Source: Tepidiformaceae bacterium
GTDB lineage: Bacteria > Chloroflexota > Dehalococcoidia > Tepidiformales > Tepidiformaceae
Length of the DNA: 64,000 nt
Direction: 5' to 3'
Assembly (NCBI GenBank): GCA_965203545.1
Contig: OZ241899.1
Location: 1,358,291 to 1,422,290, forward strand
The notes beneath the pieces were generated by a model. The model ran no database searches and was not told where the DNA came from. It saw only the letters and a list, made by a program, of their open reading frames with translations. Positions 34,191 through 60,995 of this stretch are shown here, one piece after another; within the stretch, counting starts at the first letter, position 1, and every line of letters begins with the position of its first letter. Position numbers and translations under genes: made by a program.

Positions 34191-34204
34191 GGGCCGATCG
34201 GCCC
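34191..34204. repeat. Perfect 14-bp palindrome GGGCCGATCGGCCC between the two binding-protein genes
   Basis: Read directly. It lies about 27 nt upstream of the paralog-1 start codon and about 65 nt downstream of the paralog-2 stop. Confidence 0.9.
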
Positions 34205-34268
34205 ATTCATAACGGAAGCCCATGCGCCTTTCAATAGCGCAAATGGCCGGATTCAAACCCTCCCGCCG

Positions 34269-36173
34269 TCAGGCGTCGGAGAGCCACATGTTCTGGGCGC
34301 GCCGGTAGCCCATGGAGCCGTTATCGCGGAAGTCCGGGGGCAGCGGCGCATTCTGGACGCGGGTGCGGAGAGCGTGCTGCTCCGTGGCCTCCACGGGGAC
34401 GGGGAAGGTGCAGCAGTACTGCGTGAAGATGAGGCGCTGCAACTGGTGCAGCAGGGCGGTGCGCTGCTCGGGGTCGTGGGTCACGGACTGGGCGTTGTAG
34501 AGGTCCTGGATGGGCTTGCCGATGTCGTGCGTGATGTCGATGACCTCGGGCGGGATGAGCGGCGCCTGCGGATGCTCGTGGATGAAGAGGCCGAAGGCCC
34601 CGCCGTAGCCCAACGGCACGTAGTGGGTGAGGGCGTTGTAGTCGGGGATGGTCGAGAGGGTGTTCTCGGTGACGAGGGCGAAGTGCCAGATCTTCGAGCC
34701 CGGCGGGGCCGTGAGGCTGGAGACGTAGGTGGCGAGATCCACCGGCATCATCGTCACGCCGACGCCGAGGTTCTCCTCGATGCTCTGGGAGATGAACTCG
34801 GTTCCACGCGTGTTCGCGAAGGTGGCGAGGAGGGTGGTGAGACCGTCGGGGAAGACCTGGTCGCCGCCGCCCTGCTCCCACAGCTGGCGGGCGCGCTCGG
34901 GATCGAACTGCTGGAGCTGGCGGATCTCGTCCTGGGAGAGGACCTGGGGGAAGCGGGGGCCGACGGGCGCCCCGCGGATGCCGTCGCCGTCGTGGACGAT
35001 GTCGATGTAGCCGTCCCAGTCGATGGAAAGTGAGAGGGCTTCGCGCAGTTGCGGGAAGCGCGCCCACTTGAGGGCATCGAGGGCCATGACGAGGTGGGTG
35101 TTGGTGGGGCCGGTGATGATGTTGACGCCGTCCTGGCCGCGGAGCTCTTCGGCCTTGATGGCGTCGATGCCGCCGACGACGCCGGTGAGGATGTCCGAGT
35201 CGCCGGCGAGGAAGCGGGCCTCGGCGGTGGCGGAATCGGTGATGAGAGCGTCCTCCCAGGCATCGATGTAGGGCGGGTCCTTGGTGAAGCGCCCGCGGGC
35301 GGTGGTATGGCCGGCGTAGTTGGGGTTGCGCATGTAGGAGTTGAAGCCATCGAGCCCGCGGGACTCGAACATGTAGGCCCCGCCGCCGGCATTGACGGTG
35401 TCGGTGAGGTTGCCGCCGTTCGCCTCGACGACCTCGGGAGCGACGATGGCGAGGGAGGTGGAGGCGAGCGTGGGGATGGCGGAGACCCACGGGTAGGCCA
35501 TCTTCAGGGCGAAGGTGGAGTCGTCGGGCGTGTCGAACCCGGCCATGAAGGAGAACTGCATGGGGTTGACCTCGGAGGCGAGGTCGGTGAAGGCGGCGGG
35601 GAGGCGCGCGTAGCTGTAGGCGATGTCGCTGGACGTGATCGGGCGTCCGCCCGCGGCCTCGGGGTTGAAGCGGAGGTTGGGCTCGAGGTTGAAGACGATC
35701 GTGAAGGGGTCGGGCTGCTCCCAGCTCTGGGCCGCATCTCCCCAGGCCTCGTCCTCGATGAGGGAGTAGCCGAGGAGGTGGTTGTAGGTGACGGCCGCCC
35801 ACTGGTAGCCCGTGATGGTGATGGCGGGGTCGTAGCCCGTTTCGGCGAAGGCGCGCTGCGCCTTGAAGGTGCCACCCGACCTGGGGCCGGTAGCGGCGGC
35901 CTGCGTCGCGGCTTCGGTGGCAGCGGCCTCCGTGGCGGCGGCCGCTTCGGTCGCGGCGGCCTCAGTAGCAGCGGCCTCGTCCGGCTCGTCGGCAGCAGCC
36001 TCAGTCGCGGCGGCCGTGGCAGCGGGCGCAGGCGCCTCATCGTCGTCGTCGTCGTCGCCGCAGCCAACGGCCACGAGGCCGGCTGTTCCGGCAGCGACCG
36101 CGGCGCTTCCGGCGAGGATCCGGCGGCGCGAGATGCGCCTTCGCCAGTACTTGCCCCAATACCCTTCAGCCAT
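34269..36173 (-). CDS. ABC transporter substrate-binding protein, family 5, Tat-signal lipoprotein, paralog 2
   Basis: MAEGYWGKYWRRRISRRRILAGS...LVAVGCGDDDDDDE. Collinear with paralog 1 throughout. Confidence 0.9.
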   Translation of the reverse strand: MAEGYWGKYWRRRISRRRILAGSAAVAAGTAGLVAVGCGDDDDDDEAPAPAATAAATEAAADEPDEAAATEAAATEAAAATEAAATEAATQAAATGPRSGGTFKAQRAFAETGYDPAITITGYQWAAVTYNHLLGYSLIEDEAWGDAAQSWEQPDPFTIVFNLEPNLRFNPEAAGGRPITSSDIAYSYARLPAAFTDLASEVNPMQFSFMAGFDTPDDSTFALKMAYPWVSAIPTLASTSLAIVAPEVVEANGGNLTDTVNAGGGAYMFESRGLDGFNSYMRNPNYAGHTTARGRFTKDPPYIDAWEDALITDSATAEARFLAGDSDILTGVVGGIDAIKAEELRGQDGVNIITGPTNTHLVMALDALKWARFPQLREALSLSIDWDGYIDIVHDGDGIRGAPVGPRFPQVLSQDEIRQLQQFDPERARQLWEQGGGDQVFPDGLTTLLATFANTRGTEFISQSIEENLGVGVTMMPVDLATYVSSLTAPPGSKIWHFALVTENTLSTIPDYNALTHYVPLGYGGAFGLFIHEHPQAPLIPPEVIDITHDIGKPIQDLYNAQSVTHDPEQRTALLHQLQRLIFTQYCCTFPVPVEATEQHALRTRVQNAPLPPDFRDNGSMGYRRAQNMWLSDA

Positions 36174-36363
36174 TTTGTTCCCCTTCTCTCTATAGCTGGC
36201 CGTCATTCCGGCCACTTACTCATTTGCGTCATTCTAGGCCCGGCGTCAACAAGCCCGGGTTAGGGCGCGTGGCGGTAGGGAAGGGGTACGGCTATGCTTG
36301 ACCTTCGCTCTAGCAGACAAGGAATACCGGCGAGGCCGGCGATTCCGAGGAGAGGCCCAGGAC

Positions 36364-37533
36364 ATGGACTTTCGAGACAGCCCGGCTCAGGCCGAGTGGC
36401 GCATCCAGGTGCGGGATTTCCTGCGCGACTACTGCCCCCAGGAGATCCGGGGCAAGTTCCCGATGGGGCGGCCCGAAGAAGAAAAGCCCCTCTGGGAAGC
36501 GTGGCGCGTAGCGCTGGCGGAGCGCGGCTGGATCGCGCCGGCGTGGCCGGCGGCGTACGGCGGCGCGGGCATGAAGCCGATGGACCAGTTCATTCTCAGC
36601 CAGGAGTTCGCCGAGGCCGGCGCCCCCAGGCTGGGTGGCCTGGGCCTGATGATGCTGGGGCCGACGCTCATCGAGCACGGCACCGAGGAGCAGAAGCAGC
36701 AGCACATTCCGGGCATCCTGAGCGGCGAGGTGGAGTGGTGCCAGGGCTACAGCGAGCCCGGCTCGGGCTCGGATCTGGCCTCCCTGCAGACGCGGGCCGT
36801 GCGCGACGGGGACGACTATGTGATCAACGGCCAGAAGATCTGGACGTCGCTGGCGCATCGCGCGCACTGGATGTTCATGCTGGCGCGCACGGACCCGGAC
36901 GCTCCCAAGCACCGGGGCATCACGTACTTCCTGCTCGACATGAAGACGCCGGGCATCACCGTGCGGCCACTCGTGAACATGACGGGGGGCCACGACTTCA
37001 ACGAGGTGTTCTTCGAGGACGTGCGCGTCCCGACGCGGAACATCATGGGTGAGGTGAACCGCGGCTGGTACGTGGGCACGACGACGCTGGACTTCGAGCG
37101 TTCCTCGATTGGGACGCCGATCGGGCTGCGCCAGGCCGTCGAACGGAACCTGAGTTGGCTGCGCGAGCACAAGGACGAGATTCCGCAGACGACGTACGAG
37201 GCCAACCGCTTCGAGTGGGCGGAGCGCTTCATCGAGGTGCAGACGGCCACGATGCTGGCCTACCGCATCATCTCGATGCAGGACGCGGGCGAGATTCCGA
37301 ACGCGGAATCCTCGATCGCGAAGCTGTTCACGACGGAGCTGAGCCAGCGCATCGCGCGCACGGCCTCCCACATGGTGGGCATGTGGGGCGACATCTCGGA
37401 CGAGAGCGCGCCCTTGCGAGGCACGCCGGGCGTCGGCTACGTGAACCAGGTTCGCGAGACGATCGCGGGCGGCACAAGCGAGATCCAGCGGAACATCATC
37501 GCGACGCGCGGCCTCGGGCTGCCACGCGCCTAA
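36364..37533 (+). CDS. Acyl-CoA dehydrogenase
   Basis: MDFRDSPAQAEWR..., WCQGYSEPGSGSDLASL, TGGHDFNEVFFEDVRVP and IAGGTSEIQRNII. GAGGAGAGG lies upstream of the ATG at 36364. Confidence 0.9.
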   Translation: MDFRDSPAQAEWRIQVRDFLRDYCPQEIRGKFPMGRPEEEKPLWEAWRVALAERGWIAPAWPAAYGGAGMKPMDQFILSQEFAEAGAPRLGGLGLMMLGPTLIEHGTEEQKQQHIPGILSGEVEWCQGYSEPGSGSDLASLQTRAVRDGDDYVINGQKIWTSLAHRAHWMFMLARTDPDAPKHRGITYFLLDMKTPGITVRPLVNMTGGHDFNEVFFEDVRVPTRNIMGEVNRGWYVGTTTLDFERSSIGTPIGLRQAVERNLSWLREHKDEIPQTTYEANRFEWAERFIEVQTATMLAYRIISMQDAGEIPNAESSIAKLFTTELSQRIARTASHMVGMWGDISDESAPLRGTPGVGYVNQVRETIAGGTSEIQRNIIATRGLGLPRA

Positions 37534-37564
37534 CCCGCGCCCCAACTGCGAAGGAGCAAGGAAC

Positions 37565-38761
37565 ATGGCCACCGCAACCGAGTCGGAGACGAAAACGCTA
37601 CTGGAGCGCGCGGACGCGATCGCGCCCATCGTGGAGGAAGACCTTGACGAAGCCGAGCGCGAGCGGCGCCTGACGGACCGCGCCTTCGAGGCGATAAAGG
37701 ACGAAGGCCTGCTGGGCGTCTGGGTGCCGGAGTCGTTGGGCGGTCTCGAGTCCACGCCGCGCGAAGGCTTCGAGCTGTTCGAGAAGGTAGCGAAGATTCA
37801 CGGCTCCGCCGCCTGGAACCTCTGGATCTGGTCGACGGGAGCAGCGCTGGGGGCGTCCAGCTCCGAGGAGTCGGTCGCGGAGTCGTACGCAGACGGCCCC
37901 GTGAGCGCGGTCGGGGCGGGGGGCATCTTCCCCTTCAATCCCGCCGAGGTCGTCGAGGGCGGCTACCGCGTGACGGGACGCTGGCCGTTCTGCAGTGGGT
38001 CGAGCCATGCGAAGTGGGTCGGCGGCGGCATCATGGTCACGGAGAACGGCCGGCCGCGGATGACGCCGATGGGCATCCCCGAGATGCGCTTCGTCAGCTT
38101 CCCGCGCGAGGAAGCGGAGATCGTGGACACGTGGCACGTGGTCGGGCTGCGCGCCACGAGCAGCAACGACGTGGCCGTGGAGAACGCATTCGCGCCGGAG
38201 TACCGCACCTCGGCCTTCGGGATGGGGGCACAGCCCGGCAAGCACTTCCAGGGGCCGCTCTATCGCTTCCCCGTGATGGGCATCCTGGGAGCGCCCATCG
38301 GGATCGTCGCGATCGGCATCGCGCAGCGCGCCATCGACGAGTTCATCAAGCTCGCCAAGACGAAAACGGTTCGCACCTCGCAGGCGCGGGTCAGCGACAA
38401 CACCGTCATCCGGAGCGAGGTCGCGAAGGCGCACGCCGCGGTTCAGTCCGCGCGCTCGTGGCTCTACGAGATGGTCGACGAGACCTGGGAGACGGTCCTG
38501 CGAGGCGACGACGTGAGCCTCGATCAGCGGCGGGATCTCTCGCTGGCGGGCACGAACGCGACGCGCAGCGCCGCCTACGCCACGGACCTGATGCACACGG
38601 CGGCGGGTGGCACCTCCGTCTTCCAGACGAGCCCGATCGAGCGCTGCTTCCGGGACGTGCACGCGGCCACGCAGCACGCGGGCACCTCGCCGCGCAACTT
38701 CGAAACGCTGGGCGCGATGCTCGTTGGGGAGATGCCGGACAACCCGCTGCTGTTCGCCTGA
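37565..38761 (+). CDS. ACAD-fold flavoprotein (HsaA/DszC-like flavin-dependent monooxygenase or dehydrogenase)
   Basis: 398 aa. GRWPFCSGSSHAKW and VVGLRATSSNDVAVENAFAPE are patterns typical of this ACAD-like subgroup. Confidence 0.75.
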   Translation: MATATESETKTLLERADAIAPIVEEDLDEAERERRLTDRAFEAIKDEGLLGVWVPESLGGLESTPREGFELFEKVAKIHGSAAWNLWIWSTGAALGASSSEESVAESYADGPVSAVGAGGIFPFNPAEVVEGGYRVTGRWPFCSGSSHAKWVGGGIMVTENGRPRMTPMGIPEMRFVSFPREEAEIVDTWHVVGLRATSSNDVAVENAFAPEYRTSAFGMGAQPGKHFQGPLYRFPVMGILGAPIGIVAIGIAQRAIDEFIKLAKTKTVRTSQARVSDNTVIRSEVAKAHAAVQSARSWLYEMVDETWETVLRGDDVSLDQRRDLSLAGTNATRSAAYATDLMHTAAGGTSVFQTSPIERCFRDVHAATQHAGTSPRNFETLGAMLVGEMPDNPLLFA

Positions 38762-40531: not shown

Positions 40532-40674
40532 ACACGGAAAGTGCGGGCGGGACGGGGCGGCGCGCCTTTGTCCAGTGGGAGCGGTCCTGTACCATGCTCG
40601 GGCGCTCGGGCGCCTCCGAAGGCGTCCCCATCCCACTGTGCGCGGAGGCGGCCGTGGCCAACAGCAGCCAGGCA

Positions 40675-41673
40675 ATGGAACCAAGCGAAGAGGTCCTGAA
40701 GGACCTGCATCTCCGGATGGTGCGAATTCGCCACTTCGAGGAAGAGGCGGGCAAGCTGATGGAGCAGGGCAAGTCCCCCGGGGCGCTGCACCTGTACATC
40801 GGCGAGGAAGCCGTTGCTTCGGGTGTGATGGTGCACCTCAGCGACGAGGACCAGATCACGAGCACGCATCGCGGCCACGGGCACCTGGTGGCCAAGGGCG
40901 GCGAGTTCAAGAAGATGTACGCGGAGCTGTACGGCCGGGAGACCGGCTACAACAAGGGCCGCGGCGGCAGCATGCACATCTCGAACGTGGATGCGGGCAT
41001 GCTCGGCGCGAACGGCATCGTGGCGGCGGGGCCGCCGATCGCCGTCGGCGCGGCCTTCTCGAACAAGTACCTCGCCCGGATGGAAGGTCGCGACTCAATG
41101 AACGTGGCCGTCCCCTTCTTCGGCGACGGCGCAACGAACGAGGGCGCGTTCCACGAGGCGGCGAACATGGCCGCCATCTGGAAGCTGCCAGTGGTGTTCG
41201 TCTGCGAGAACAACGGGTACGGCGAGTTCACCCCACAGGCGGAGCACCAGGCGATCAGTGATGTCGCCGACCGCGCCGCCGGGTACGGCATGCCGGGCGT
41301 CATCTGCGACGGCATGGACGCGGTTGCGGTCTGGGAAGCTGCCGGCGAGGCGATTGAACGCGCCCGCTCAGGCGGCGGCCCCACGCTGGTGGAGTGCAAG
41401 ACCTACCGCTTCGTCGACCACGTCGGCCTCCGCGGCATCGGTCTGCACTACCGCACGGACGAGGAGCTCGAAGAGTGGCGCGCCCGTGACCCGATCCCGC
41501 AGCACGAGCAGCGCATGATCGAGATGGGCGTAATGACCGCGGAGGAGATCCAGGCCGTACACGACGCAGTCATGGCCGACATCACCGAGTCGATCGAGTT
41601 CGCGGAGAACAGCCCGCTGCCGGATCCGGCGAACCTGCTCAACGACGTCTACACGCCCACGGCGGCGAGTTAG
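40675..41673 (+). CDS. Thiamine-diphosphate-dependent 2-oxoacid (pyruvate/acetoin) dehydrogenase E1 alpha subunit
   Basis: HLYIGEEAVASG, THRGHGH, GRGGSMH and FFGDGATNEG (TPP-binding motif). Confidence 0.9.
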   Translation: MEPSEEVLKDLHLRMVRIRHFEEEAGKLMEQGKSPGALHLYIGEEAVASGVMVHLSDEDQITSTHRGHGHLVAKGGEFKKMYAELYGRETGYNKGRGGSMHISNVDAGMLGANGIVAAGPPIAVGAAFSNKYLARMEGRDSMNVAVPFFGDGATNEGAFHEAANMAAIWKLPVVFVCENNGYGEFTPQAEHQAISDVADRAAGYGMPGVICDGMDAVAVWEAAGEAIERARSGGGPTLVECKTYRFVDHVGLRGIGLHYRTDEELEEWRARDPIPQHEQRMIEMGVMTAEEIQAVHDAVMADITESIEFAENSPLPDPANLLNDVYTPTAAS

Positions 41674-41683: not shown

Positions 41684-42688
41684 ATGACCGCAGCAGAAGC
41701 GCCCGCCGGGCGGCAACTCGTTTACACCCTCGCGATCACGGAGGGCGTCCGCCAGGCGCTCCAGGAAGAACCGCTGGCGTTCATGGCCGGCGAGGACGTC
41801 GCCGGCGCCGGCAGCGTGTTCGGCATCTACCGCGGCCTGCTCGACGAGTTCGGGCCGGACCGCGTCATCGACACGCCCATCAGCGAGTCCGGCATCATCG
41901 GGCTGGCGGTGGGCGCCGGGGCCACGGGCCTCAAGCCGATCGTCGACATCATGTTCATGGACTTCATCGGCGAGTGCATGGACGAGATCGTCAACCAGCT
42001 CGCGAAGATGCGGTACATGTTCGGCGGCAAGGCGACGCTGCCGGTAACCGTCCTGACGATGTCGGGCGCGGGCATGAACCTCGCGGCGCAGCACTCCCAG
42101 AGCCTGGAGGCGTGGCTCTGCCACACGCCGGGCCTGAAGGTGGTGATGCCGGCGACGGCGTACGACGTAAAGGGCGCGATCATCACCGCCGCGCGCGAGC
42201 CGAACCCGGTGTTCGTCGTGATGTGCAAGGGCCTGATGGCGCTTCCGGGCGAGGTACCGGAGGAGCCGTACACGCTGCCCATCGGCAAGGCGAACGTGCT
42301 GCGCGAAGGCGACAGCCTCACGATCGTGGCCCACGGACGGATGATCCACGAAGCCACGAAGGCCGCCGAGGTCCTCGAGGGCGAAGGCGTGAGCGCCGAG
42401 GTGATCGACCCGCTGTGGCTGCAGCCGCTCGACACGGACACGATCATCAACTCGGTCTCGAAGACGCACAACGCGCTCGTCGTGCACGAGGCCGTCCGCT
42501 TCGGCGGGGTCGGTGCGGAGATCGCGGCGCAGATCGCGGAGCTGGCGTTCGACTACCTCGATGCGCCGGTGGGCCGCGTGGCGGCGCCGTTCTCGCCCGT
42601 GCCGTTCAGCCCGGTGCTGGAGCAGACGTACGTGCCGAACGCCGAGCGCATCGCGGCCGAGGCGCGACGCATCCTCGGGACGGGGTAG
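41684..42688 (+). CDS. 2-oxoacid dehydrogenase E1 beta subunit
   Basis: DTPISESGIIGLAVGAG, a transketolase-like pyrimidine-binding domain and its C-terminal domain. 334 aa. Confidence 0.9.
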   Translation: MTAAEAPAGRQLVYTLAITEGVRQALQEEPLAFMAGEDVAGAGSVFGIYRGLLDEFGPDRVIDTPISESGIIGLAVGAGATGLKPIVDIMFMDFIGECMDEIVNQLAKMRYMFGGKATLPVTVLTMSGAGMNLAAQHSQSLEAWLCHTPGLKVVMPATAYDVKGAIITAAREPNPVFVVMCKGLMALPGEVPEEPYTLPIGKANVLREGDSLTIVAHGRMIHEATKAAEVLEGEGVSAEVIDPLWLQPLDTDTIINSVSKTHNALVVHEAVRFGGVGAEIAAQIAELAFDYLDAPVGRVAAPFSPVPFSPVLEQTYVPNAERIAAEARRILGTG

Positions 42689-42690
42689 CC

Positions 42691-43737
42691 CTGACGACCT
42701 CGCGCCCGCTCGGGATCGCCGCCAACCCCGCTTCGGGGAAGGACATCCGCCGCCTCGTTGCGCGCGCGTCGGTCTTCGACAACCAGGAGAAACGCGCGAT
42801 CGTGCGGCGCGCCATCGTTGGCGCGCTGGCGAGCGGTGTGCGCGACTTCCGCTACATGCCCGACACGCACGGCATCACGGCGGCGGCGGCCGAGGAGTTC
42901 GGCTCCGAGGCCACCTTCGTCGCCGTTGAAGCGACACACACCGCAAGCACGCTCGACACGATCCGCGCAGCGGAGTCGCTGCGGGCGGAGGGCTGCGGGG
43001 CCGTCATCACGCTCGGGGGCGACGGCACGAACCGCGCCTTCGCGCTCGGCTGGCGAGACGCGCCCATCGTTCCCGTCTCGACGGGCACGAACAACGTCTT
43101 CCCGACGATGGTGGAGGCGACGGTGGCGGGCTCGGCGGCGGGGCTCGTAGCCAGCGGCCAGGTGCCGTTGGAACGGGTCGCGAGGCAGGTGAAAGCCGTA
43201 CACGTCGAGATCGAGGGTGAGCGCGACGACATCGCCCTCGTGGACGCCGTGTTGGCGGCGGACCGCTTCGTGGGATCGCGTGCGATCTGGGGCGGAGCGC
43301 GCCTGCGGGAGGCGGTCGTGACGACGGCGGAGCCGTCGGCGGTCGGGATCACCTCCATCGGGGGCCTGCTGGCGCCGTTGGCGCCGGACGAGGACGAGGC
43401 GTTGCACCTGCGTCTGGGGCCGGGCGAGGGGGGCGTCTCCCTGCTCGCGCCAATCGCGCCGGGGCTGTACGAGCCGATAGCCGTGCGTTCGCACACGCGG
43501 CTCGCGCTCGGGGAGCCGGTCACCGTAACGGGACCGGGGGTGCTCGCGTTCGACGGCGAACGCGAGCGTGTGTTGAAACCGGGGCAAGCGGCTACACTCC
43601 GGGTAGCCCGGGACGGTCCCTGGGTCATCGACGTCCACGCGACGCTGGAGTACGCAGCGTGCGTGGGTTTGTATCGCAACGACGAGGCGGCCGGCGGCTC
43701 GCCAGAGAAACAGAGACTCCAACAGGACGGGGGATGA
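42691..43737 (+). CDS. NAD-kinase/DAG-kinase-fold protein (AcoX-like)
   Basis: VITLGGDGTNRAF (GGDGT motif), with an N-terminus LGIAANPASGKD. There is no ATG/GTG/TTG before 42802. I provisionally start at the CTG at 42691, 2 nt after the E1beta stop. Confidence 0.6.
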   Translation: MTTSRPLGIAANPASGKDIRRLVARASVFDNQEKRAIVRRAIVGALASGVRDFRYMPDTHGITAAAAEEFGSEATFVAVEATHTASTLDTIRAAESLRAEGCGAVITLGGDGTNRAFALGWRDAPIVPVSTGTNNVFPTMVEATVAGSAAGLVASGQVPLERVARQVKAVHVEIEGERDDIALVDAVLAADRFVGSRAIWGGARLREAVVTTAEPSAVGITSIGGLLAPLAPDEDEALHLRLGPGEGGVSLLAPIAPGLYEPIAVRSHTRLALGEPVTVTGPGVLAFDGERERVLKPGQAATLRVARDGPWVIDVHATLEYAACVGLYRNDEAAGGSPEKQRLQQDGG

Positions 43738-43738
43738 G

Positions 43739-45127
43739 ATGCCAACCGAGATTTACATGATGAAGCTCGGCATGACGATGACGGAGGGAACCGTAGCCGA
43801 GTGGCACATCCCCGACGGCGGCGAGGTGAAGCTGGGCGAGGATCTCTACCGGCTCGAGACGGAGAAGGTCGAGATGGAGGTCGAGGCGGAAGCTGCGGGC
43901 ATCGTGCGGCACCTCGTGCCGGCCGAGTCGACCGTTGACCCCGGTGCCGTGGTCGGCTGGATTTACGCCGCCGACGAAGAGATTCCGGACGTGCTGCCGG
44001 GAGCGGGAGCGCCGGCGGCGTCCGCCGCTCCCGTCGAGGCAGAGCCGGCGCCTGCCGCAGCCGCCGAAGCTCCCGCCACCCCGGCGCGAGCCGAGGGCGA
44101 GCGCGTGCCGGCCTCGCCGGCGGCGCGACGGCTTGCGAAGGAGCTCGGCGTGGACCTGGCCACGGTTACGGCGACCGGTCCGCGCGGGCGTGTGACCGAA
44201 GACGACGTGCGCACCGCACACGAGGCGGCGGCAGCCGCGCCCGCGGCTGCTCCGGCGGGCGCACCGGCGCCGGCCTCGCCGCTCGCGCGGAAGCGGGCGG
44301 AGGCGCTGGGCGTGGACCTGTCGACGGTGACGGGGACCGGCCCCGGCGGGCGCATCACGAAGGAAGACGTCGAGGCGGCGGCCGGCGGTGCGCCCGCGGC
44401 TGCCCCAGCAGCGGCAGCCGCTGCTCCCGCGGCGGCGCGCGAGGACGAGGTGATGGCGGTGCGCGGCATGCGCAAGGTCATCGCGGAGCGCATGTACGCG
44501 AGTCTGCAGGAGACGGCGCAGCTGACCATGGACATGGACGTGGCCATGGACGACTGCGTGAAGCTGCGCAGCCAGCTCATCGAGGAGTGGGCAGGCGACA
44601 GCGTGCGCCCCTCCTACACGGACATCGTGATGAAGGCGGCGGCCAAGGCCCTGCTCGATCACCCGCGCATGAACGCCCAGTTCCTCGGCACGGAGATGAA
44701 CCTGCGGGGCGAGGTCCACGTAGGCATGGCGGTGGCGCTCGACGAGGGCCTGGTCGTGCCGGTGGTGCGGCACGTCGACCAGCTCGGGCTGAAGGAGATC
44801 GCGCAGGAGTCCTCCCGACTGGCTGGGCTGGCGCGCGAAGGGAAACTCGGACTCGACGACATGGCGGGTGGCACGTTTACCGTGTCGACGCTGGGCATGT
44901 TCGGGGTGGACTCGTTCACGCCCATCCTTAACCCGCCCGAGGTTGGCATCCTCGGCGTGAACCGGCTTCGCGACGACGTGCGCTGGGAGGGTGAGCGTCC
45001 CGTACGGCAGAAGGCGATGACCCTGAGCCTGACATGGGACCACCGCGCGCTCGACGGGGCGCCGGCGGCGCAATTCCTGGCATCGGTGCGCGACTACCTC
45101 GAAGCGCCGTTCCGGCTGCTGGTCTAG
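43739..45127 (+). CDS. Dihydrolipoamide acyltransferase (E2): one lipoyl domain, two peripheral subunit-binding domains, catalytic domain
   Basis: The lipoyl-Lys context is LETEKVEMEV. The PSBDs are ASPAARRLAKELGVDLATVTATGPRGRVTEDDV and ASPLARKRAEALGVDLSTVTGTGPGGRITKEDV. The catalytic motif is WDHRALDG. Confidence 0.9.
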   Translation: MPTEIYMMKLGMTMTEGTVAEWHIPDGGEVKLGEDLYRLETEKVEMEVEAEAAGIVRHLVPAESTVDPGAVVGWIYAADEEIPDVLPGAGAPAASAAPVEAEPAPAAAAEAPATPARAEGERVPASPAARRLAKELGVDLATVTATGPRGRVTEDDVRTAHEAAAAAPAAAPAGAPAPASPLARKRAEALGVDLSTVTGTGPGGRITKEDVEAAAGGAPAAAPAAAAAAPAAAREDEVMAVRGMRKVIAERMYASLQETAQLTMDMDVAMDDCVKLRSQLIEEWAGDSVRPSYTDIVMKAAAKALLDHPRMNAQFLGTEMNLRGEVHVGMAVALDEGLVVPVVRHVDQLGLKEIAQESSRLAGLAREGKLGLDDMAGGTFTVSTLGMFGVDSFTPILNPPEVGILGVNRLRDDVRWEGERPVRQKAMTLSLTWDHRALDGAPAAQFLASVRDYLEAPFRLLV

Positions 45128-45139: not shown

Positions 45140-46537
45140 ATGGCGGAAACAACGTTCGATGTCGTAGTGGTGGGAGGCGGCCCGGGCGGCTACGTAGCCG
45201 CGATTCGCGCGTCCCAGCTCGGGTTGGAGACAGCACTCGTGGAACGCGAGCATCTGGGGGGCATCTGCCTGAACTGGGGCTGCATTCCGACAAAGACGCT
45301 CCTGCACACGGCCGACCTCTACCGCGAGATGCAGGACGCCGAGCGCTACGGCCTGACGGCGGAGGCCTCCTTCGACCTCGACAAGGTCGTCAGTCGCTCG
45401 CGATCGGTGGCGCGCCAGCTCAACAGCGGCGTCAAGTTCCTGATGCGGAAGCACAAGATCCAGGTATTCGACGGCGCGGCGCGGCTGACCGGCGGAGGCG
45501 GGATCGTCGTCGAGAAGGACGGCGAGACCGTCGCCGAACTGGGCGCCGACAACATCATCGTGGCGACGGGCGCGCGCCCGCGCTCTCTGCCCGGCCTGGA
45601 GCCCGACGGCGAGCTGATCTGGACGTACAAGGAAGCGATGGTGCCGGCGATGATGCCGGACTCGCTACTGGTTATCGGGTCGGGGGCGATCGGCGTCGAG
45701 TTCGCGAGCTTCTACCGGTCGCTGGGGGCAGAGGTGACGGTGGTGGAGGTGCTGCCCCGCATTCTCCCGGTGGAGGACGAGGAGATCTCGGCCTTCGCCC
45801 GCGAGGAGTTCGAGAAGCAGGGCATCACGATGCACACGAACGCCACGGTGGAGTCGCTCGAGAAGGGCGACAACAGCGTGACGGCGACGATCGCGACCGA
45901 GGACGGCACAGTCGAGGCGACCTTCGACCGCGCGATCCTGGCGGTGGGCGTGACCGGCAACGTCGAGGGCCTCGGCCTCGAAGCGACGGCGGCCACGGTC
46001 GACCGGGGGTCGATCGTCGTGAACGAGTGGCTGGAGACGGGCGAGCCCGGGCTGTACGCCATCGGCGACGTCGCCGGGCCGCCGTTGCTGGCCCACAAGG
46101 CGATGCACGAGGGCGTCATCTGCGTGGAGCGCATCGCGGGGCTGCCCTCGGCGCGGCCGATGGAGCGGCGGCGCATCCCCGGCTGCACCTACTGCCACCC
46201 GCAGGTCGCGAGCGTCGGCCTGACGGAAGCGGCGGCGCAGGAAGCCGGCTTCAACGTGCGCGTGGGGCGCTTCCCGCTGGTCGGGAACGGCAAGGCGATC
46301 GCCGTGGGCGACACCGGAGGCATGGTGAAGACCGTCTTCGACGCCGACACGGACGAGCTCCTCGGGGCGCACATGGTGGGCCCGGACGTGACCGAAATGA
46401 TCCAAGGGTTCGTGGTCGCGATGGGGTTGGAGACAACCGAGGCGGAGCTGATGGAAACCGTATTCCCGCACCCCACTATCTCCGAGGCGATGCATGAGTC
46501 GGTGCTCGACGCCTACGACCGGGTGCTGCACGTCTAG
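45140..46537 (+). CDS. lpdA: Dihydrolipoyl dehydrogenase (E3)
   Basis: VVVVGGGPGGYVAAIRA, the redox-active GGICLNWGCIPTK, and HPTISEA at the C-terminus. Confidence 0.95.
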   Translation: MAETTFDVVVVGGGPGGYVAAIRASQLGLETALVEREHLGGICLNWGCIPTKTLLHTADLYREMQDAERYGLTAEASFDLDKVVSRSRSVARQLNSGVKFLMRKHKIQVFDGAARLTGGGGIVVEKDGETVAELGADNIIVATGARPRSLPGLEPDGELIWTYKEAMVPAMMPDSLLVIGSGAIGVEFASFYRSLGAEVTVVEVLPRILPVEDEEISAFAREEFEKQGITMHTNATVESLEKGDNSVTATIATEDGTVEATFDRAILAVGVTGNVEGLGLEATAATVDRGSIVVNEWLETGEPGLYAIGDVAGPPLLAHKAMHEGVICVERIAGLPSARPMERRRIPGCTYCHPQVASVGLTEAAAQEAGFNVRVGRFPLVGNGKAIAVGDTGGMVKTVFDADTDELLGAHMVGPDVTEMIQGFVVAMGLETTEAELMETVFPHPTISEAMHESVLDAYDRVLHV

Positions 46538-46607: not shown

Positions 46608-47126
46608 ATGGGCGCGCTGATCGACCACCTGAAGTCGCTTGCTGCGGAGGGCGCCAGCATCGAGGACGTAACCGCTGCAGCGGAGGCGGAGCTCGCGGGA
46701 GGCACGCTGCTGACGTCGGAGCTGGAGGACCCGGAGGGGGCCATCGCGGGAGCGGCCGTGGAGGCGGAGGCGCTGCACCAGGAGGTGCAGGGAGCGATCC
46801 AGCGGTTCCCGGCCAGCCAGAGCGCAGGCTTCCACCGCACCGATCTCGACCCCCGGGCGATGGCGGTGGTCGCCACGATGGCGTACGCACGCCGGGGCGG
46901 GGTCTACCTGCCGAAGGACCTCGAGGAGATGGTGGCCGAGGGGCGGGTCTCGGAGGAGTGGCACGCGCGCGAGTCGGTTCGCATCCGCGTCCTGCTGACG
47001 ATCCTGCCGATGTTCGTCGCGGCCATCGAGCGGGGCGAACTGATCCCGGCGACGTTCGCGGTTGGAATCACCGAGGTCGCGCAGCGACTGGGGCGGGTAC
47101 GAATCCCGCAGGTGGCGGCGACCTGA
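46608..47126 (+). CDS. Hypothetical protein (172 aa)
   Basis: High GC3 and a balanced amino-acid composition. It is co-directional with, and 27 nt upstream of, the CMD-family pair. Confidence 0.5.
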   Translation: MGALIDHLKSLAAEGASIEDVTAAAEAELAGGTLLTSELEDPEGAIAGAAVEAEALHQEVQGAIQRFPASQSAGFHRTDLDPRAMAVVATMAYARRGGVYLPKDLEEMVAEGRVSEEWHARESVRIRVLLTILPMFVAAIERGELIPATFAVGITEVAQRLGRVRIPQVAAT

Positions 47127-47153: not shown

Positions 47154-47675
47154 TTGCGGGCTGAGAATGCGCCCGTGACTTGGCTCGAAGGGGCAGAAGG
47201 AAGCGCGCCGTTCGATGCGGCTCTGGGCCTGCGGCCCGAGCTTCGCGATCTGTACGCGGCCTTCTACGGAAAGCTCTGGGACGAGGAGTTGCTGCCCGCG
47301 AGCCTGCTTGAACTGTGCCGCCTGCGAGTGGCGCAGCTGCACGACTGCGAGGCCGAGCTGGCCGTTCGCCACGCCGACGCCGGCGTGAGCGACGCTCAGG
47401 TTGCGGCGCTTGCGGACTGGCCGGGTAGCGACCTGTTCAGCAAGCAGGAGCGAGCGGCGCTGACACTGGCCGAGAAGATGCCCTGGCAGCACCACGACCT
47501 CACCGACGAGGAGTACGCGGACCTGACCGCACACTTCGGTGAGTCGGGTGTGGTGGCGCTGACGATCGGCGTGGCGCTGTTCGATGCGAACTGCCGCCTG
47601 CGCCTGGCGCTGGGCACGGAGCCGGCGCCCGTGGATGCGCCGGCGCCGGCCTCGAGCGAGGGTCCGATCTACTGA
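47154..47675 (+). CDS. Carboxymuconolactone decarboxylase (CMD/AhpD-like) family protein, paralog 1
   Basis: LLELCRLRVAQLHDCEAELAVRH and ERAALTLAEKM are typical of the CMD fold. The start is either the TTG at 47154 or the GTG at 47175. Confidence 0.7.
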   Translation: MRAENAPVTWLEGAEGSAPFDAALGLRPELRDLYAAFYGKLWDEELLPASLLELCRLRVAQLHDCEAELAVRHADAGVSDAQVAALADWPGSDLFSKQERAALTLAEKMPWQHHDLTDEEYADLTAHFGESGVVALTIGVALFDANCRLRLALGTEPAPVDAPAPASSEGPIY

Positions 47676-47694
47676 TGTCCCGAAGGAGGATACG

Positions 47695-48213
47695 ATGTCG
47701 ACCAAGCCACGAGTGAGTTCGGCGATACCGGGCGAGGAGGCCAGCTTCGGCACGGCGCTGGCGCACCAGCCGGGGCTGGCGGGCGCCTTCGGGATGCTCT
47801 ACGGGACGTTCTGGAGCAAGGGCGCGCTCGACCACCGCACGAAGGAGGTCACGCGGATGCGAAACGCCCGCGTGACGGACTGCGGCTACTGAAAGAACGT
47901 TCGCTTCGCCGTGGCGCGTGAGCAAGGACTGACCGAAGACCAGGTAACGGAGATCGAGGACGGGTACGAAGAGTCCGACCTGTCCTCCCGGGACAAGGCG
48001 GCAATCGCCCTGACGGACGCGATCATCGGGGATCCGAGGCAGCTGACGCCGGAGGTGCAGGCGCGGCTGCGGGAGCACTTCAGCGACCCGGAGATCGTCG
48101 AGATGGCGCTGGGGGTGGGGCTCTTCATGAGCCTCTCGAAGGTGCTCATCACGCTCGGCATGGAGCCCGAGGAGATGGGCACGGAGATCGTTCCCACGCC
48201 GGGTTCGTACTAG
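47695..48213 (+). CDS. CMD/AhpD-like family protein, paralog 2, read through an in-frame TGA (47890-47892) at the second Cys of CxxC: candidate selenoprotein (or a nonsense pseudogene)
   Basis: Two track ORFs (…RNARVTDCGY* and, 18 nt later in the same frame, AREQGLTEDQV...) join into one 172-codon CMD-length protein reading ...DCGY[TGA]KNVRFAVAREQG.... GAAGGAGGA lies 5 nt upstream of the ATG at 47695. Confidence 0.6.
47903..47923 (+). promoter_or_regulatory. Hairpin 13 nt downstream of the in-frame TGA (candidate bacterial SECIS)
   Basis: GCUUCGC (47903-47909) pairs with GCG-U-GAGC (47916-47923, bulged U at 47919). The 6-nt loop is CGUGGC. The loop G and U fall at +22/+23 from the U of UGA. 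Confidence 0.35.
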
Positions 48214-48314
48214 CGCTCGAAGGGGCGAGTCGGACCCGTTTCGCGTAACATCAAGGCACCTGTCGCCAGGCGCCCGCGTCATCGGTGCGGGCGAAGAATC
48301 CAAGGAGTCTAGGC

Positions 48315-49595
48315 GTGGTTGTTGAAGCACGAGTGAAGGGCACCCCCCAGGAGAAGGCGCCGGAGCCGCTGCTGGGCACGGAGCTGATCCCGAAGGAACG
48401 CTACACCTCGGAAGAGTTCATGAAGCTCGAGTGGGAGCGCATGTGGACCAAGGTGTGGAACGTCGCCGGACGGGAGCAGGACATCCCCAACGTGGGTGAC
48501 TACTTCACCACCGAGCTTGGTCCCGAGTCGTTCCTGATCGTGCGCGAGGCGGAGGACAAGGTCCGCGCGTTCTACAACGTCTGCCCGCACCGCGGGAACC
48601 AGATCCGCAACCCGGGCATGGGTCACGCGGAGAGCTTCCAGTGCGCCTACCACTTCTTCGAGTTCAATCTCGACGGCTCGAAGAAGTTCGTCCCGGACGA
48701 GGACACCTTCACCCAGGGCGTGCCCCAGGAGACGGCGCTGGTGGAAGTGCCCTGCGACACATGGGCGGGCTGGGTCTGGTTCAACATGAACCCGGACGCA
48801 GAGCCCCTCGAGGAGTTCCTGGGCGTGCTGCCGGAGCACATCGACCCGTACCACTTCGAGAAGATGTATATCGTCCAGGACAAGACGATCGAGTGGGACA
48901 CCAACTGGAAGGCCTCGGTGGACGCCTTCAACGAGGTCTACCACGTGCAGGGCATCCACCCGCAGATCCTGGAGTCGCTGGACGACATCCATGTGCAGAT
49001 CGACCTGTACGAGCGGCACAACCGCTACCTGGTTCCCTTTGGGCTGCTGAGTCCCCGCTACCAGAACCAGGATGAGCTCACGCATGGACTGAAGCAGATG
49101 CTGCGCGGCGCCGGCATCGACCCGGATGAGTTCGATGGGACGCCGGAAGAGGTCCGCACCGCGATACAGGTGGCGGCCCGCGAGAACACGGAAGCGCGCG
49201 GGATCGACGTCTCAGAGCTCAACGACGACCAGATGACGGACGACTACCACTACTACATCTTCCCCAGCATCACGCTGAACACCCACCACACGGGCGTGAT
49301 GGTGTTCCGGCAGCGTCCGCACGCGACGGACCCGAACAAGATGTACTTCGACCTGCAGAACTACGCGCGTATCCCGGACGGGGCGGATCCCCCGCCGCGT
49401 CCGGCGCACACGACGCACAAGCACGGCGAAATCTCCATCGGTCTCGTGCTTGATCAGGACTCCTACAACCTCCCGCGCGTGCAGAAGGGGATGAACTCGC
49501 GGGCCTACAAGGGCCTGCTCATCAACTACCGCGAGCGGCGCATCCGCCACATGCACAAGACGATCGACGACTACATCTACGGGCCGGACCGCTAG
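48315..49595 (+). CDS. Rieske-type aromatic ring-hydroxylating oxygenase, alpha subunit
   Basis: CPHRGNQI...CAYHFFEF (Rieske CxH...CxxH) and NEVYHVQGIHP (mononuclear-iron His motif). The GTG at 48315 has AAGGAG 7 nt upstream. The track start is at 48285. Confidence 0.85.
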   Translation: MVVEARVKGTPQEKAPEPLLGTELIPKERYTSEEFMKLEWERMWTKVWNVAGREQDIPNVGDYFTTELGPESFLIVREAEDKVRAFYNVCPHRGNQIRNPGMGHAESFQCAYHFFEFNLDGSKKFVPDEDTFTQGVPQETALVEVPCDTWAGWVWFNMNPDAEPLEEFLGVLPEHIDPYHFEKMYIVQDKTIEWDTNWKASVDAFNEVYHVQGIHPQILESLDDIHVQIDLYERHNRYLVPFGLLSPRYQNQDELTHGLKQMLRGAGIDPDEFDGTPEEVRTAIQVAARENTEARGIDVSELNDDQMTDDYHYYIFPSITLNTHHTGVMVFRQRPHATDPNKMYFDLQNYARIPDGADPPPRPAHTTHKHGEISIGLVLDQDSYNLPRVQKGMNSRAYKGLLINYRERRIRHMHKTIDDYIYGPDR

Positions 49596-49671
49596 GACCG
49601 GCGCGGGACCAGACCGGCGAGCCGCGGCCCATGGTCGCGGCTCGCTTGCCTCACGGGAGGAGCAGGAGCGG

Positions 49672-50064
49672 ATGAGCGAGCAGACCGACAGCGAGACCCC
49701 CTTCACGCCCGTGGGGCCGGCAAACATGCTCAAGCCGGGCGAGAGCGCGATCATCGAGTTCGGGGATGAGTCGATCGTGCTCGTGCACCTGGTGGAGGGG
49801 TACTACGCCATCGAGAACCGCTGCTCGCACGACGACGGGCCGCTCGGCCAGGGCAGGCTCGTCGGGTACGAGATCGACTGCCCCCGCCACGGCGCCAAGT
49901 TCGACGTCCGCGACGGCGCGGCGAAGTCGCTGCCGGCGTTCCGGCCGGTGGCCTCCTTCCCGGTGCGCTACAACGAGGACACGGACGAGATCGAGGTCCA
50001 GTACAAGAAGCCCGAGCCGCCCTCGTACGAGGATCCGCGGGGGTTCAACTTCAACTTCACCTAG
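49672..50064 (+). CDS. Rieske [2Fe-2S] ferredoxin subunit
   Basis: CSHDDGPL...CPRHGAKF. 130 aa. Confidence 0.85.
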   Translation: MSEQTDSETPFTPVGPANMLKPGESAIIEFGDESIVLVHLVEGYYAIENRCSHDDGPLGQGRLVGYEIDCPRHGAKFDVRDGAAKSLPAFRPVASFPVRYNEDTDEIEVQYKKPEPPSYEDPRGFNFNFT

Positions 50065-50074
50065 GAGCGAGGCC

Positions 50075-51550
50075 ATGACGCAATCAGGAGACTGGCGGGA
50101 GGCCTACAAGGAACGGCTCTGCAGCATCGAGGAGGCCATGGCCCTCATCGGCGAGGGCGACCTCGTCACGATGGGCGTGCTTACGCCCGGACAGTTGGGC
50201 GCGGCGCTGGCAGACCGCGCGGAGCAGCTGAACCGCCTGGACGTGCGCGCGCTGGCGCCGACCGAGCCGCGCCTGTTTGGTCCCGGACAGAACGGCGAGC
50301 GCGAGATCGAGCTGTTCATCGGGGAGCCGCTGCGCGCAGCGCACGACGCGAAGATCGCCACGTACCTGCCGAACACGTTCATGCTCGGGATGAAGGCGCA
50401 CGACGCGGGCCGGGAGGAAGCGCGCCTGCCCGACGTGCAGATCACCTCGGTCAGCGAGCCGAACGAGCAGGGGTACGTGCAGTTCGGGGTGCACATGTGG
50501 ACGCGCAAGTCGTACACGAAGCGCTGCGCGAAGACGATCGGGATGATCGACCCCAACATCACGCCCGGCCACGGTGACCTCTGGGTCCACGTGAGCGAGT
50601 TCGCCGCGCTGATCGAGGGCGTCATCCCGCCGGTAAACGTGGATGCGGTGCGGGAGCGCGTGGAGACGCAGGCGCCGGAGGAGAACCGCGCTGAGCTGCT
50701 GGAGCTGCTCGGGATGGCCAGCCTGGACCAGATCGCCCTGGCGGAAGGCATGTACCACATGCTCCCGCCCAAGATCGTGCGGCAGGCGTTCGGGCTGGCG
50801 GAGGTCGACGACGAGGCCCAGGCGATCGCACACAACCTGGCGCCCCTGATCCGCGACGGGGACACGATCCAGGTGGGGGTTGGCACGCCGAGCGCGCTCA
50901 TGTTCAAGGCGGGCGCCTTCGACAACGCGCACCACCTGGGGGTGCACACGGAGCTTGGGTCGCCGGGACTGGCGCAGCTGTGGGCGCGCGGCAACATCGA
51001 CAACTCGCGCAAGACCATTCACAAGGATCGCTGCGTGGCGGTCGCGTGGACCGGGTGCGACGGCGTGGACCTCGGCATCATCCGCGACAACCCCGCGTTC
51101 GAGGTGTACGACCCGAACTACCTGCTGAACCCGGCCCTGATGTCGCAGAACAGCCAGATGACTTCGGTCAACAGCGCCGTGGCGGTCGACCTGCTGGGGC
51201 AGATCGCGAGCGAGGACCGCTACGGCGGCCAGATGATCAACGGGACGGGCGGGCAGCCGGACACGCACATCAGCGCGGCGCTCTGCCCGGACGGACGCGC
51301 CATCACGGTGCTGCGCTCGACCGCGCTCGAGGGCTCGCTCTCGAAGATCGTGGCGAAGCACGAGGCGGGGACGCTCGTGACGATCCCACGCTACCTGGCG
51401 GACACGATCGTGACCGAGTACGGCGTTGCGCGGCTGCTCGACAAGAACCACCGCCAGCGCGCCGCCGAGCTGATCAGCGTGGCGCATCCCGATTTCCGGG
51501 GCGAGCTGCAGAAGCAGGCGAGCGAGCTGTGGGGCGAGCTCGGCATCTAG
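50075..51550 (+). CDS. Acetyl-CoA hydrolase/transferase family (4-hydroxybutyrate CoA-transferase-like) protein
   Basis: ATG at 50075 (MTQSGDWREAYKERLCSIEEAMALIGEGDLV). Downstream NSAVAVDLLGQI...GTGGQPD is typical of the family. Confidence 0.8.
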   Translation: MTQSGDWREAYKERLCSIEEAMALIGEGDLVTMGVLTPGQLGAALADRAEQLNRLDVRALAPTEPRLFGPGQNGEREIELFIGEPLRAAHDAKIATYLPNTFMLGMKAHDAGREEARLPDVQITSVSEPNEQGYVQFGVHMWTRKSYTKRCAKTIGMIDPNITPGHGDLWVHVSEFAALIEGVIPPVNVDAVRERVETQAPEENRAELLELLGMASLDQIALAEGMYHMLPPKIVRQAFGLAEVDDEAQAIAHNLAPLIRDGDTIQVGVGTPSALMFKAGAFDNAHHLGVHTELGSPGLAQLWARGNIDNSRKTIHKDRCVAVAWTGCDGVDLGIIRDNPAFEVYDPNYLLNPALMSQNSQMTSVNSAVAVDLLGQIASEDRYGGQMINGTGGQPDTHISAALCPDGRAITVLRSTALEGSLSKIVAKHEAGTLVTIPRYLADTIVTEYGVARLLDKNHRQRAAELISVAHPDFRGELQKQASELWGELGI

Positions 51551-60465: not shown

Positions 60466-60995
60466 CGAGCCACCCGCACGCGACCGGCCGCTTCTGCATG
60501 CAGTGCGGAAGCGGGCTGACGGAACGCGTCCCGCCGGGCGACACGATGGCGCGGCTGGTCTGCGAGGCCTGCGGGTTCGTGCACTACCTGAACCCTCGGC
60601 CGGTGGCGGGCACCATTCCGGTGCGCGAGGACGGCAGCCTGCTGCTGGTGCGGCGCGCGATCGAGCCGCGGCTGGGATCCTGGGTGTTCCCGGGCGGCTT
60701 CATGGACGTGGGGGAGACGGCGGAGGAGGCGGCCGCGCGGGAGACGCGCGAGGAGGCGAACCTGGAGGTCGACGAACTGTCGCTTCTGGGGGTGTACACG
60801 CGCACGCACGCGGGGGTCGTCGTGATCGTGTACGAGGCGCGGGCGCTGGGCGAGGGGTCGGCGGGATCGGAGACGAGCGAGATCGGGTGGTTCGCGCCGG
60901 ACGCCATCCCCTGGGACGAGCTCGCCTTCGACACGACGCACTGGGCGCTTGGGGCGTGGCTGGAGCGGCGGGGTCTGGGGCGGCTGGCGGGCTAA
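60462..60995 (+). CDS. NUDIX hydrolase with an N-terminal zinc ribbon
   Basis: FCMQCG...CEACGF, and the Nudix box GGFMDVGETAEEAAARETREEANL. The GTG at 60462 overlaps the moaE stop (GTGA). Confidence 0.85.
   Translation: MTSHPHATGRFCMQCGSGLTERVPPGDTMARLVCEACGFVHYLNPRPVAGTIPVREDGSLLLVRRAIEPRLGSWVFPGGFMDVGETAEEAAARETREEANLEVDELSLLGVYTRTHAGVVVIVYEARALGEGSAGSETSEIGWFAPDAIPWDELAFDTTHWALGAWLERRGLGRLAG

Follow-up and report, generated by a model that had tools for sequence, protein, structure and literature searches.

The stretch of DNA analysed here, 64 kb of contig OZ241899.1 from a Tepidiformaceae bacterium (Chloroflexota; hereafter the window), carries a gene of the AhpD-like, CMD-fold type whose reading frame contains a single TGA (Table 1). 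A first-pass annotation, made from the letters alone, had proposed that this TGA stands at the second cysteine position of a CxxC motif, that it encodes selenocysteine (Sec), and that a hairpin immediately downstream is the selenocysteine insertion sequence (SECIS). A second CMD-fold gene lies directly upstream, and genes for a 2-oxoacid dehydrogenase-type complex precede the pair. Below we describe the gene, its relatives and the hairpin, and we weigh the proposal against its alternatives.

Table 1. Features at and around the interrupted gene (positions are those of the window; ORF, open reading frame; MFE, minimum free energy)
Feature	Position	Strand	Remarks
AhpD-like (CMD-fold) selenoprotein gene, predicted	47695-48213	+	172 codons; UGA is codon 66; ends with TAG 48211-48213
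Shine-Dalgarno-like GAAGGAGG	47682-47689	+	read from the sequence; 5 nt before ATG 47695
C-G-Y-U redox motif	47881-47892	+	Cys63 TGC 47881-47883; Sec66 TGA 47890-47892
In-frame UGA, predicted Sec codon	47890-47892	+	TGA in 67/67 Sec-type genes
SECIS-like hairpin	47903-47923	+	MFE fold of the isolated stretch; conserved among relatives
CMD-fold paralog	47154-47675	+	173 aa; motif HDCEAE, single Cys; Pfam CMD; 19 nt before the selenoprotein start
ORF of 172 aa between E3 and the CMD pair	46608-47126	+	without Pfam match
E3, dihydrolipoyl dehydrogenase	45140-46537	+	
E2 with lipoyl domain	43739-45127	+	
AcoX/NAD-kinase-like ORF	42688-43739	+	in an apparent gap
E1 beta	41684-42688	+	
E1 alpha, 2-oxoacid/acetoin-dehydrogenase type	40594-41673	+	
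Rieske-type ring-hydroxylating oxygenase alpha, Rieske ferredoxin, acetyl-CoA hydrolase/transferase-family protein	48285-51550	+	
Two tandem family-5 solute-binding proteins	32251-36215	-	~650 aa
Protein of 543 aa with IstB/DnaA-like AAA ATPase domains	60992-62623	-	

A CMD-fold gene interrupted by one in-frame TGA

The codons at 47878-47904 read GAC TGC GGC TAC TGA AAG AAC GTT CGC, that is, D C G Y * K N V R. Translation from the ATG to the terminal TAG showed that this TGA is the sole interruption. The ORFs on its two sides share one frame, and the read-through product has 172 aa, against 173 aa for the upstream paralog. The Pfam domain CMD (PF02627) was detected over residues 33-107 with 37.8 bits, well above the gathering threshold of 23, when U was replaced by C in the query. 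The domain crosses the TGA, and neither fragment is complete by itself. A possible restart codon, GTG 47911, has no purine-rich Shine-Dalgarno sequence ahead of it. In all these respects the sequence, its translation and the Pfam result bore out what the first-pass annotation had said of the gene: an in-frame TGA at the second CxxC position, flanking ORFs in one frame with the joint length of the paralog, two incomplete domain fragments, and a downstream fragment without a ribosome-binding site. We also scanned the frame composition of the window, whose G+C content is ~69%, for in-frame TGA codons with coding signal on both sides, and the TGA at 47890 was the sole credible one. The TGA was confirmed as the sole interruption of a 172-codon frame.

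By sequence, the closest solved structures are those of Pseudomonas aeruginosa PA0269 (2ijc/2o4d/7xw1, E ~2e-11) and of Atu0492 from Agrobacterium (2gmy). Both are AhpD-like proteins of a single domain, and their peroxidase activity is weak (PMC3141380). The TGA codon aligns to Cys51, the second Cys of the PA0269 motif CAYC (Cys48/Cys51), and Glu36, Cys48, Tyr50 and Cys51 of PA0269 correspond to E51, C63, Y65 and U66 of the window protein. The two proteins have the same fold and matching E, C and Y relay residues. They differ in that the window protein has Sec for the second Cys, ~25 extra N-terminal residues, a conserved C-terminal ...VPTPG tail, and Arg70 at the position of the relay residue His55. 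The relay residues of AhpD-like proteins (Glu, Cys-x-x-Cys and His) have been described for PA0269, and the His was reported to be invariant (PMC3141380). The pattern Glu...Cys-x-x-Cys-x-x-x-His is therefore absent from the window protein, and Arg70 was invariant both in 50 Cys-type family members and in the Sec members. Perhaps Arg replaces the relay His because a selenol needs no activation.

As a structural model we used the AlphaFold2 prediction for a natural Cys homolog (P0001, 70% identical) in place of the window protein. In this model (predicted local distance difference test score 93.5), the motif CGFC (63-66) lies across the beginning of a short helix (64-68), and the conserved ...VPTPG tail pairs with the VRF strand beside the active site. 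The best matches of the model in the PDB, obtained with Foldseek, were all AhpD-like: 2gmy, 2ijc, 3c1l and 6k40 (template modelling score up to 0.8 on the target, E ~1e-6 to 1e-5). Judged from this homolog model, the protein takes up an all-helical AhpD-like fold with the CxxC/U motif at the N-terminus of a helix.

Codon 66 and the downstream hairpin among relatives

Relatives were gathered by scanning a single genome for each GTDB species, which yielded 80 loci (numbered with L below); together with the window, 81 genes were analysed. An alignment of homologs at the TGA column, suggested as a check in the first-pass annotation, gave TGA in 67 genes and TGC in 14. Codon 66 was TGA in every one of the 67 Sec-type genes (66 loci and the window), which came from four phyla and reached down to ~50% identity. 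The TGA loci belonged to Dehalococcoidia (34), to genomes labelled Gammaproteobacteria or Pseudomonadota (29, two doubtfully labelled bins included), to Acidimicrobiales (2) and to Limisphaerales (1). The TGC loci belonged to Tepidiforma, to Erythrobacter/Porphyrobacter/Qipengyuania/Novosphingobium, to two Gammaproteobacteria and to one member of the Acidimicrobiales, and full-length Cys homologs read CG[YF]C with the Cys exactly at the TGA position. The nearest loci (83-99% identity) were metagenome-assembled genomes (MAGs) of Tepidiformaceae or other Dehalococcoidia, and MAG sequences OZ242314.1 and OZ244910.1 were 98-99% identical; OZ242321.1 and OZ220739.1 were near-identical as well. In a neighbour-joining tree the Sec forms made up three clades among which the Cys forms were interspersed, so Sec and Cys have replaced each other several times. 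The two doubtful bins are MAG contigs labelled 'Candidatus Fonsibacter ubiquis' (L058) and 'Klebsiella pneumoniae' (L059); their genes are of the gamma type and cluster with marine Pseudomonadales, and the bins are probably mis-assigned.

Both halves of the frame are under purifying selection, codons 1-65 as well as codons 67-172. For the window and L022, the proportions of nonsynonymous and synonymous differences by the Nei-Gojobori method (pN/pS) were 0.061/0.397 upstream of the TGA and 0.107/0.436 downstream; for L036 and L055 they were 0.211/0.670 and 0.284/0.716. These values bear on a reading that the first-pass annotation had itself considered, in which the TGA is a recent nonsense mutation in a CxxC gene (a pseudogene) or an assembly or sequencing error. 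TGA and TGC differ by one base, and Cys forms do occur in related lineages such as Tepidiforma; the genome of Tepidiforma flava, CP115149, has the Cys form. However, the same TGA is found in 66 independently assembled genomes, down to ~50% protein identity, purifying selection is as strong downstream of it as upstream, and the genes have neither frameshifts nor extra stops. The conservation of the TGA and the selection on both halves effectively refute this reading, to which we give next to no probability.

A second alternative holds that the TGA is a real stop and the gene is split, encoding a 65-aa N-terminal peptide and a 100-aa protein started at GTG 47911, which would assemble non-covalently. 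Our protein search returned matches of two kinds. Full-length matches had 170-180 aa, were 45-70% identical and contained ...RNAR[VI]TDCG[YF]CK[RN]VRF...; dozens of fragment matches had ~100 aa, were 66-96% identical and began with MAREQGL or MRFAVAREQGL right after the TGA position. Several of these fragments are labelled 'hypothetical protein' in Dehalococcoidia MAGs, and an exact-sequence look-up of the window's own 100-aa fragment gave no record. The fragment is thus annotated in dozens of assemblies, as a split gene would have it and as the first-pass annotation had foreseen in saying that gene callers would truncate a selenoprotein. The first in-frame ATG, GTG or TTG after the TGA lies at codon 73 in most Dehalococcoidia, where 29 of the 35 genes have GTG. 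In the other Sec clades, however, this first start is scattered over codons 69-142, so a conserved restart is unsupported, and the GTG of the window is not preceded by a Shine-Dalgarno sequence. The terminal stops of the same 67 genes are TAG (30), TGA (23) and TAA (14), whereas codon 66 is never TAA or TAG; since the terminal stop drifts, a plain stop at codon 66 would be expected to drift likewise. A split would also cut the Pfam domain and the active-site helix just after Cys63, uninterrupted homologs have Cys at this position, and the hairpin described below co-occurs with the TGA. Taken together, we consider a split gene very unlikely.

The hairpin of the window pairs GCUUCGC (47903-47909) with GCG(U)GAGC (47916-47923) in 7 bp, with U47919 bulged and an apical loop CGUGGC (47910-47915) that places a G-U dinucleotide at +22/+23 (U of UGA = +1). 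This is the structure drawn in the first-pass annotation, and folding of the isolated stretch 47902-47924 returned it as the MFE fold (-7.5 kcal/mol). The earlier statement that it forms thirteen nt after the TGA is correct when counted from the U, but not as a spacer, which measures 10 nt from the A of UGA to the stem. Across 28 distinct Dehalococcoidia sequences the structure was 94.9% paired, and the RNAalifold consensus of this clade retained its three uppermost base pairs together with the loop of 6 nt. Codons 70-72 and 74 of the hairpin (CGC, TTC, GCC and GCG) showed zero synonymous variation, each being the same in 35/35 genes, whereas the comparison codons R56, A58, T61, L79 and V84 used 4-5 synonyms each in the same clade. 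In five relatives (L028, L030, L031, L032 and L034) A-R-E-Q has become A-R-S-E and the 3' arm has become GCGAAGCG, giving a perfect 8-bp stem of -13.8 kcal/mol (z = -2.3); the hairpin of L048 has a z of about -2.3, like that of L028. Dehalococcoidia therefore carry two stem variants, one of 7 bp with a bulged U and one of a perfect 8 bp reached through the change from REQ to RSE. For 47890-47950 the MFE fold is a different one, with a stem 10-15/29-34 and 3 bp on top, and it was rejected: its position 12 varies without compensation and is unpaired in 10 of the 28 sequences. Relatives whose codon 69 is GUA, GUC or GUG adopt the fold of the first-pass annotation, and the free variation at position 12, which breaks the alternative, favours that fold.

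Covariation was found in the gamma-type clade, which includes the Acidimicrobiales and Limisphaerales genes. Here the stem is 23-27/33-37 and the loop, CGUGN at +28 to +32, lies 7 nt further downstream. Pair 24-36 is CG in 22 genes, UA in 8 and GC in 1, and pair 27-33 is UA in 16 and CG in 14. Compensatory changes thus affect two of the five core pairs, at third-codon positions, and none of 500 shuffles reached the covariation score. The Arg codon in the loop is CGT in all 32 genes, whereas the other Arg codons use six synonyms. Within one orthologous family, the loop therefore stands at two registers. Dehalococcoidia have it at +21 to +26, the Gammaproteobacteria, Acidimicrobiales and Limisphaerales at +28 to +32, and the SECIS may have been rebuilt at two registers inside the same conserved coding stretch. 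A complete clade-specific hairpin was present in 66 of the 67 TGA genes and in one of the 14 TGC genes, counts that are not phylogenetically independent. A TGC gene of gammaproteobacterial form, at L035 (1527-1580), contains all 7 pairings of the Dehalococcoidia-type model while its own MFE fold differs; these pairings may be a relic of a recent conversion of Sec to Cys, or chance.

In the SECIS of E. coli fdhF the hairpin begins ~11 nt after the UGA, the loop presents G23 and U24, and U17 is bulged. The window resembles it in the 10-nt spacer, the G-U at +22/+23 and the one bulged U. It differs in that the bulged U is on the 3' arm and the stem has just 7 bp (-7.5 kcal/mol), and the gamma-type clade of the same family departs further through its more distal loop.

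Decoding of the UGA and the AhpD-like selenoprotein family

Several results weigh against Sec decoding. The 23-nt hairpin of the window is no more stable than shuffled sequence (-7.5 kcal/mol, z = 0.02), and the 61-nt stretch after the UGA gave z = +1.06 against shuffled sequence. With an energy near that of chance, the credibility of the window hairpin rests on the comparison with relatives and not on stability. Moreover, no compensatory change was seen in the hairpin within the window's own clade; the co-variation proposed as a check in the first-pass annotation was thus present in the gamma-type clade and missing here. This is because the 5' arm is invariant in the window's clade, and the support there is conservation. 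Rfam gave no match at its gathering thresholds in the whole window, and noise only around the site at E <= 10. ARAGORN detected tRNA-Sec neither in the window nor in the 80 loci (1.35 Mb), Pfam found no SelA, SelB or SelD among the 20 window proteins scanned, and tblastn with the SelA, SelB and SelD proteins of E. coli against all loci returned SelB-GTPase-like matches only, which were CysN/CysC beside CysD. Because the window is a 64-kb sample (~2%) of a genome of ~3 Mb, the missing Sec machinery is uninformative. Lastly, Sec incorporation in the AhpD-like family as a whole has been deduced from sequence. A literature search for Tepidiforma or Tepidiformaceae together with selenium terms found no paper. 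Dehalococcoidia MAGs with 46-49 selenoprotein genes are recorded in BSepDB (PMC13326102), so the Sec trait is documented in the class.

The UGA might also be read through without Sec, through near-cognate insertion of Trp, Cys or Arg stimulated by the hairpin, or it might be reassigned, locally or globally. In favour of this, no Sec machinery was found in the 64 kb of this genome, and downstream RNA structures can stimulate read-through in general. Nevertheless, TGA ends ~20 of the 63 candidate ORFs of the window, among them the Pfam-verified paralog just upstream; as the first-pass annotation had noted, it is an ordinary stop for many genes here, and so it is not reassigned. Homologs have the catalytic Cys at codon 66, the classic Sec/Cys pair, and the family is classed as a selenoprotein family in Sec-trait organisms (PMC2398784, PMC13326102). 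Read-through or reassignment of this kind has, in our judgement, a very low probability, comparable to that of the split gene.

The sequence comparisons, in which TGA was invariant in the Sec-type genes, Cys took its place in homologs, selection acted on both sides and the hairpin went with the TGA, support the CxxU selenoprotein proposed in the first-pass annotation. We conclude that TGA 47890-47892 is very probably a genuine Sec codon with a SECIS in an AhpD-like CxxU selenoprotein. From this we infer the following scheme for Sec insertion, SelB binding, redox chemistry and physiological substrate. The UGA at codon 66 would be decoded as Sec, with the stem-loop 47903-47923, 10 nt downstream, serving as a bacterial SECIS that, competing with RF2, brings SelB-GTP-Sec-tRNA(Sec) to the ribosome. 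Sec66 would stand in for the second Cys of the AhpD CxxC centre, and Cys63 and Sec66 would cycle via a selenenylsulfide, with a peroxide, a peroxiredoxin or some other disulfide as the substrate that is reduced. The product would then be a thiol/selenol oxidoreductase, either a peroxide/disulfide reductase or an adaptor that recycles peroxiredoxin, and would probably act together with the paralog encoded immediately upstream.

Such proteins are known. AhpD-like CxxU selenoproteins were reported in 27 sequences from the Sargasso Sea by Zhang, Fomenko and Gladyshev in 2005 (PMC1088965). 'AhpD-like 1' (COG2128, CxxU) was the fourth most abundant selenoprotein family of the Global Ocean Sampling (GOS) data, with 299 sequences, in Zhang and Gladyshev 2008 (PMC2398784), and the AhpD-like selenoprotein family also appears in a 2026 review (PMC13188914) and in BSepDB (PMC13326102). 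The statement in the first-pass annotation that AhpD-like proteins occur in selenoproteome surveys was therefore correct (PMC1088965, PMC2398784). Under '#AhpD-like 1' in the GOS Dataset S1, JCVI_READ_1234322 reads ...RIRNARITDCGYUKNVRFDAAREAGL..., with U annotated in exactly this motif. JCVI_READ_1093017233190 and JCVI_READ_1095337016623 also have ...RNARITDCGYU[KR]NVRF..., and the former ends in ...EPDEMETTIIPTP. Against two GOS reads the window protein showed 52% identity over 151 aa and 63% over 89 aa.

Judged by sequence, the gene is a member of this published family. The two have in common the CxxU motif, the local sequence and, behind the UGA, a stem-loop whose small apical loop contains a G, and they differ in nothing essential, except that the gene described here comes from a Tepidiformaceae (Chloroflexota) genome and not from anonymous marine reads. 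The GOS 'AhpD-like 1' group is a broad one, and some of its CxxU sequences, for example ...NECEYUIRAH..., look unrelated. The JGI name of homologs, 'alkylhydroperoxidase family enzyme', is consistent with COG2128.

NCBIfam models of AhpD-type (seleno)proteins gave weak homology (E 2e-11 to 1e-4), centred on the CxxC/U helix. Scores all lay far below the curated cut-offs: 43.7 against 310 for NF053654 (YciW-related), 41.7 against 81.8 for TIGR01926 (peroxidase-related enzyme), 25.6 against 110 for NF041047 (GSU3128 family) and 21.1 against 175 for NF041238 (AhpD_rel_CFYUT). The subfamily is therefore missed by these models, hence the truncated 'hypothetical protein' calls.

Since both the phenomenon and the AhpD-like CxxU family have been published, the novelty of the gene is low. 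It adds nothing fundamental to the biology; AhpD-like CxxU proteins have ranked with the most abundant selenoprotein families of the sea since 2005-2008. Modestly new are its placement in Tepidiformaceae, the partner paralog, the Arg in place of the relay His and the two hairpin registers, and, in practical terms, the finding that the gene escapes current gene callers and the NCBI family models. Its value lies chiefly in annotation: for this genome, as for dozens of public MAGs, the called product is a 100-aa 'hypothetical protein'. Given the truncated calls and the sub-threshold family models, the selenoproteomes of Tepidiformaceae and other Dehalococcoidia, and of marine Gammaproteobacteria, are undercounted. 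The 67 Sec and 14 Cys orthologs, with two hairpin types and a partner paralog, could seed a dedicated family model.

The upstream paralog and the gene neighbourhood

A homolog of the paralog lies directly upstream of the gene in 73 of the 81 loci, mostly with a gap of -11 to ~+50 nt (maximum 204 nt), and this arrangement occurs in all groups that have the Sec form: Chloroflexota, Gammaproteobacteria, Acidimicrobiales and Limisphaerales. The alphaproteobacterial Cys forms are without an adjacent paralog. The paralog has the motif H[DEG]C-x-x-E, whose Cys several lineages have lost. No other gene is universally linked, and the wider neighbourhood is clade-specific. This adjacency, together with a Cys that is not always kept, suggests that the Sec protein and its paralog form a two-subunit (heteromeric) module.

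In the window the pair lies directly downstream of genes for E1 alpha, E1 beta, an AcoX-like protein, E2 and E3. The AhpD of Mycobacterium tuberculosis is reportedly recycled through the lipoamide of DlaT/SucB (E2) and through Lpd (E3), a relay ascribed to Bryk et al. 2002. One might imagine that the CxxU protein and the paralog make up an obligate two-subunit module, the CxxU protein being its catalytic half, and that in Tepidiformaceae this module is wired to E2-lipoyl/E3 as reductant. The proposal is speculative and we regard it as doubtful; if true, the module would be the selenium counterpart of the mycobacterial Lpd-DlaT-AhpD relay. The likeness consists of a CxxC-type redox centre on a CMD fold and the position of the gene behind those for E2 and E3. 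On the other hand, the structural similarity to M. tuberculosis AhpD (1gu9), whose catalytic residues have been described (PMC3141380), is weak (Foldseek E ~0.7), no AhpC-type peroxiredoxin was found among the ten neighbouring window genes scanned, and the E2/E3 neighbourhood is peculiar to Tepidiformaceae. The linkage to E1-E3 occurs only within that family, including the Cys-form Tepidiforma loci L054, L064, L066 and L068, and a general link to E2/E3 was rejected for this reason.

The ORF between E3 and the CMD pair has 78-98% identity to its counterparts in close Tepidiformaceae relatives and 33-49% in remoter Dehalococcoidia. The genes for the Rieske-type oxygenase, the Rieske ferredoxin and the CoA-transferase-family protein that follow the selenoprotein gene, and that likewise belong to the Tepidiformaceae neighbourhood, point to a catabolic gene cluster around it.

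Other neighbourhoods were found in the gamma-type clade. In the subclade L036-L049 (e.g. L048, 6509-10510), two acyl-CoA dehydrogenase genes, the paralog and the selenoprotein gene make up an operon with overlapping stops and starts, and a divergent TetR gene lies upstream. The window also has two acyl-CoA dehydrogenase genes, ~9 kb upstream of the selenoprotein gene (36298-38761). In another subclade (L060, 10515-17080) the pair is followed by genes for gamma-glutamyltranspeptidase, rhodanese, a luciferase-like monooxygenase, CysD and a CysN/CysC fusion. The same neighbourhood occurs at the same offset in L052, L077 and L079, with similar matches at other offsets in L062, L070, L071, L075, L078 and L080. 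This sulfur-assimilation setting is consistent with the weak best NCBIfam match, 'YciW-related (seleno)protein'. Farther from the pair in the window, the 543-aa protein with IstB/DnaA-like ATPase domains may be related to a mobile element.

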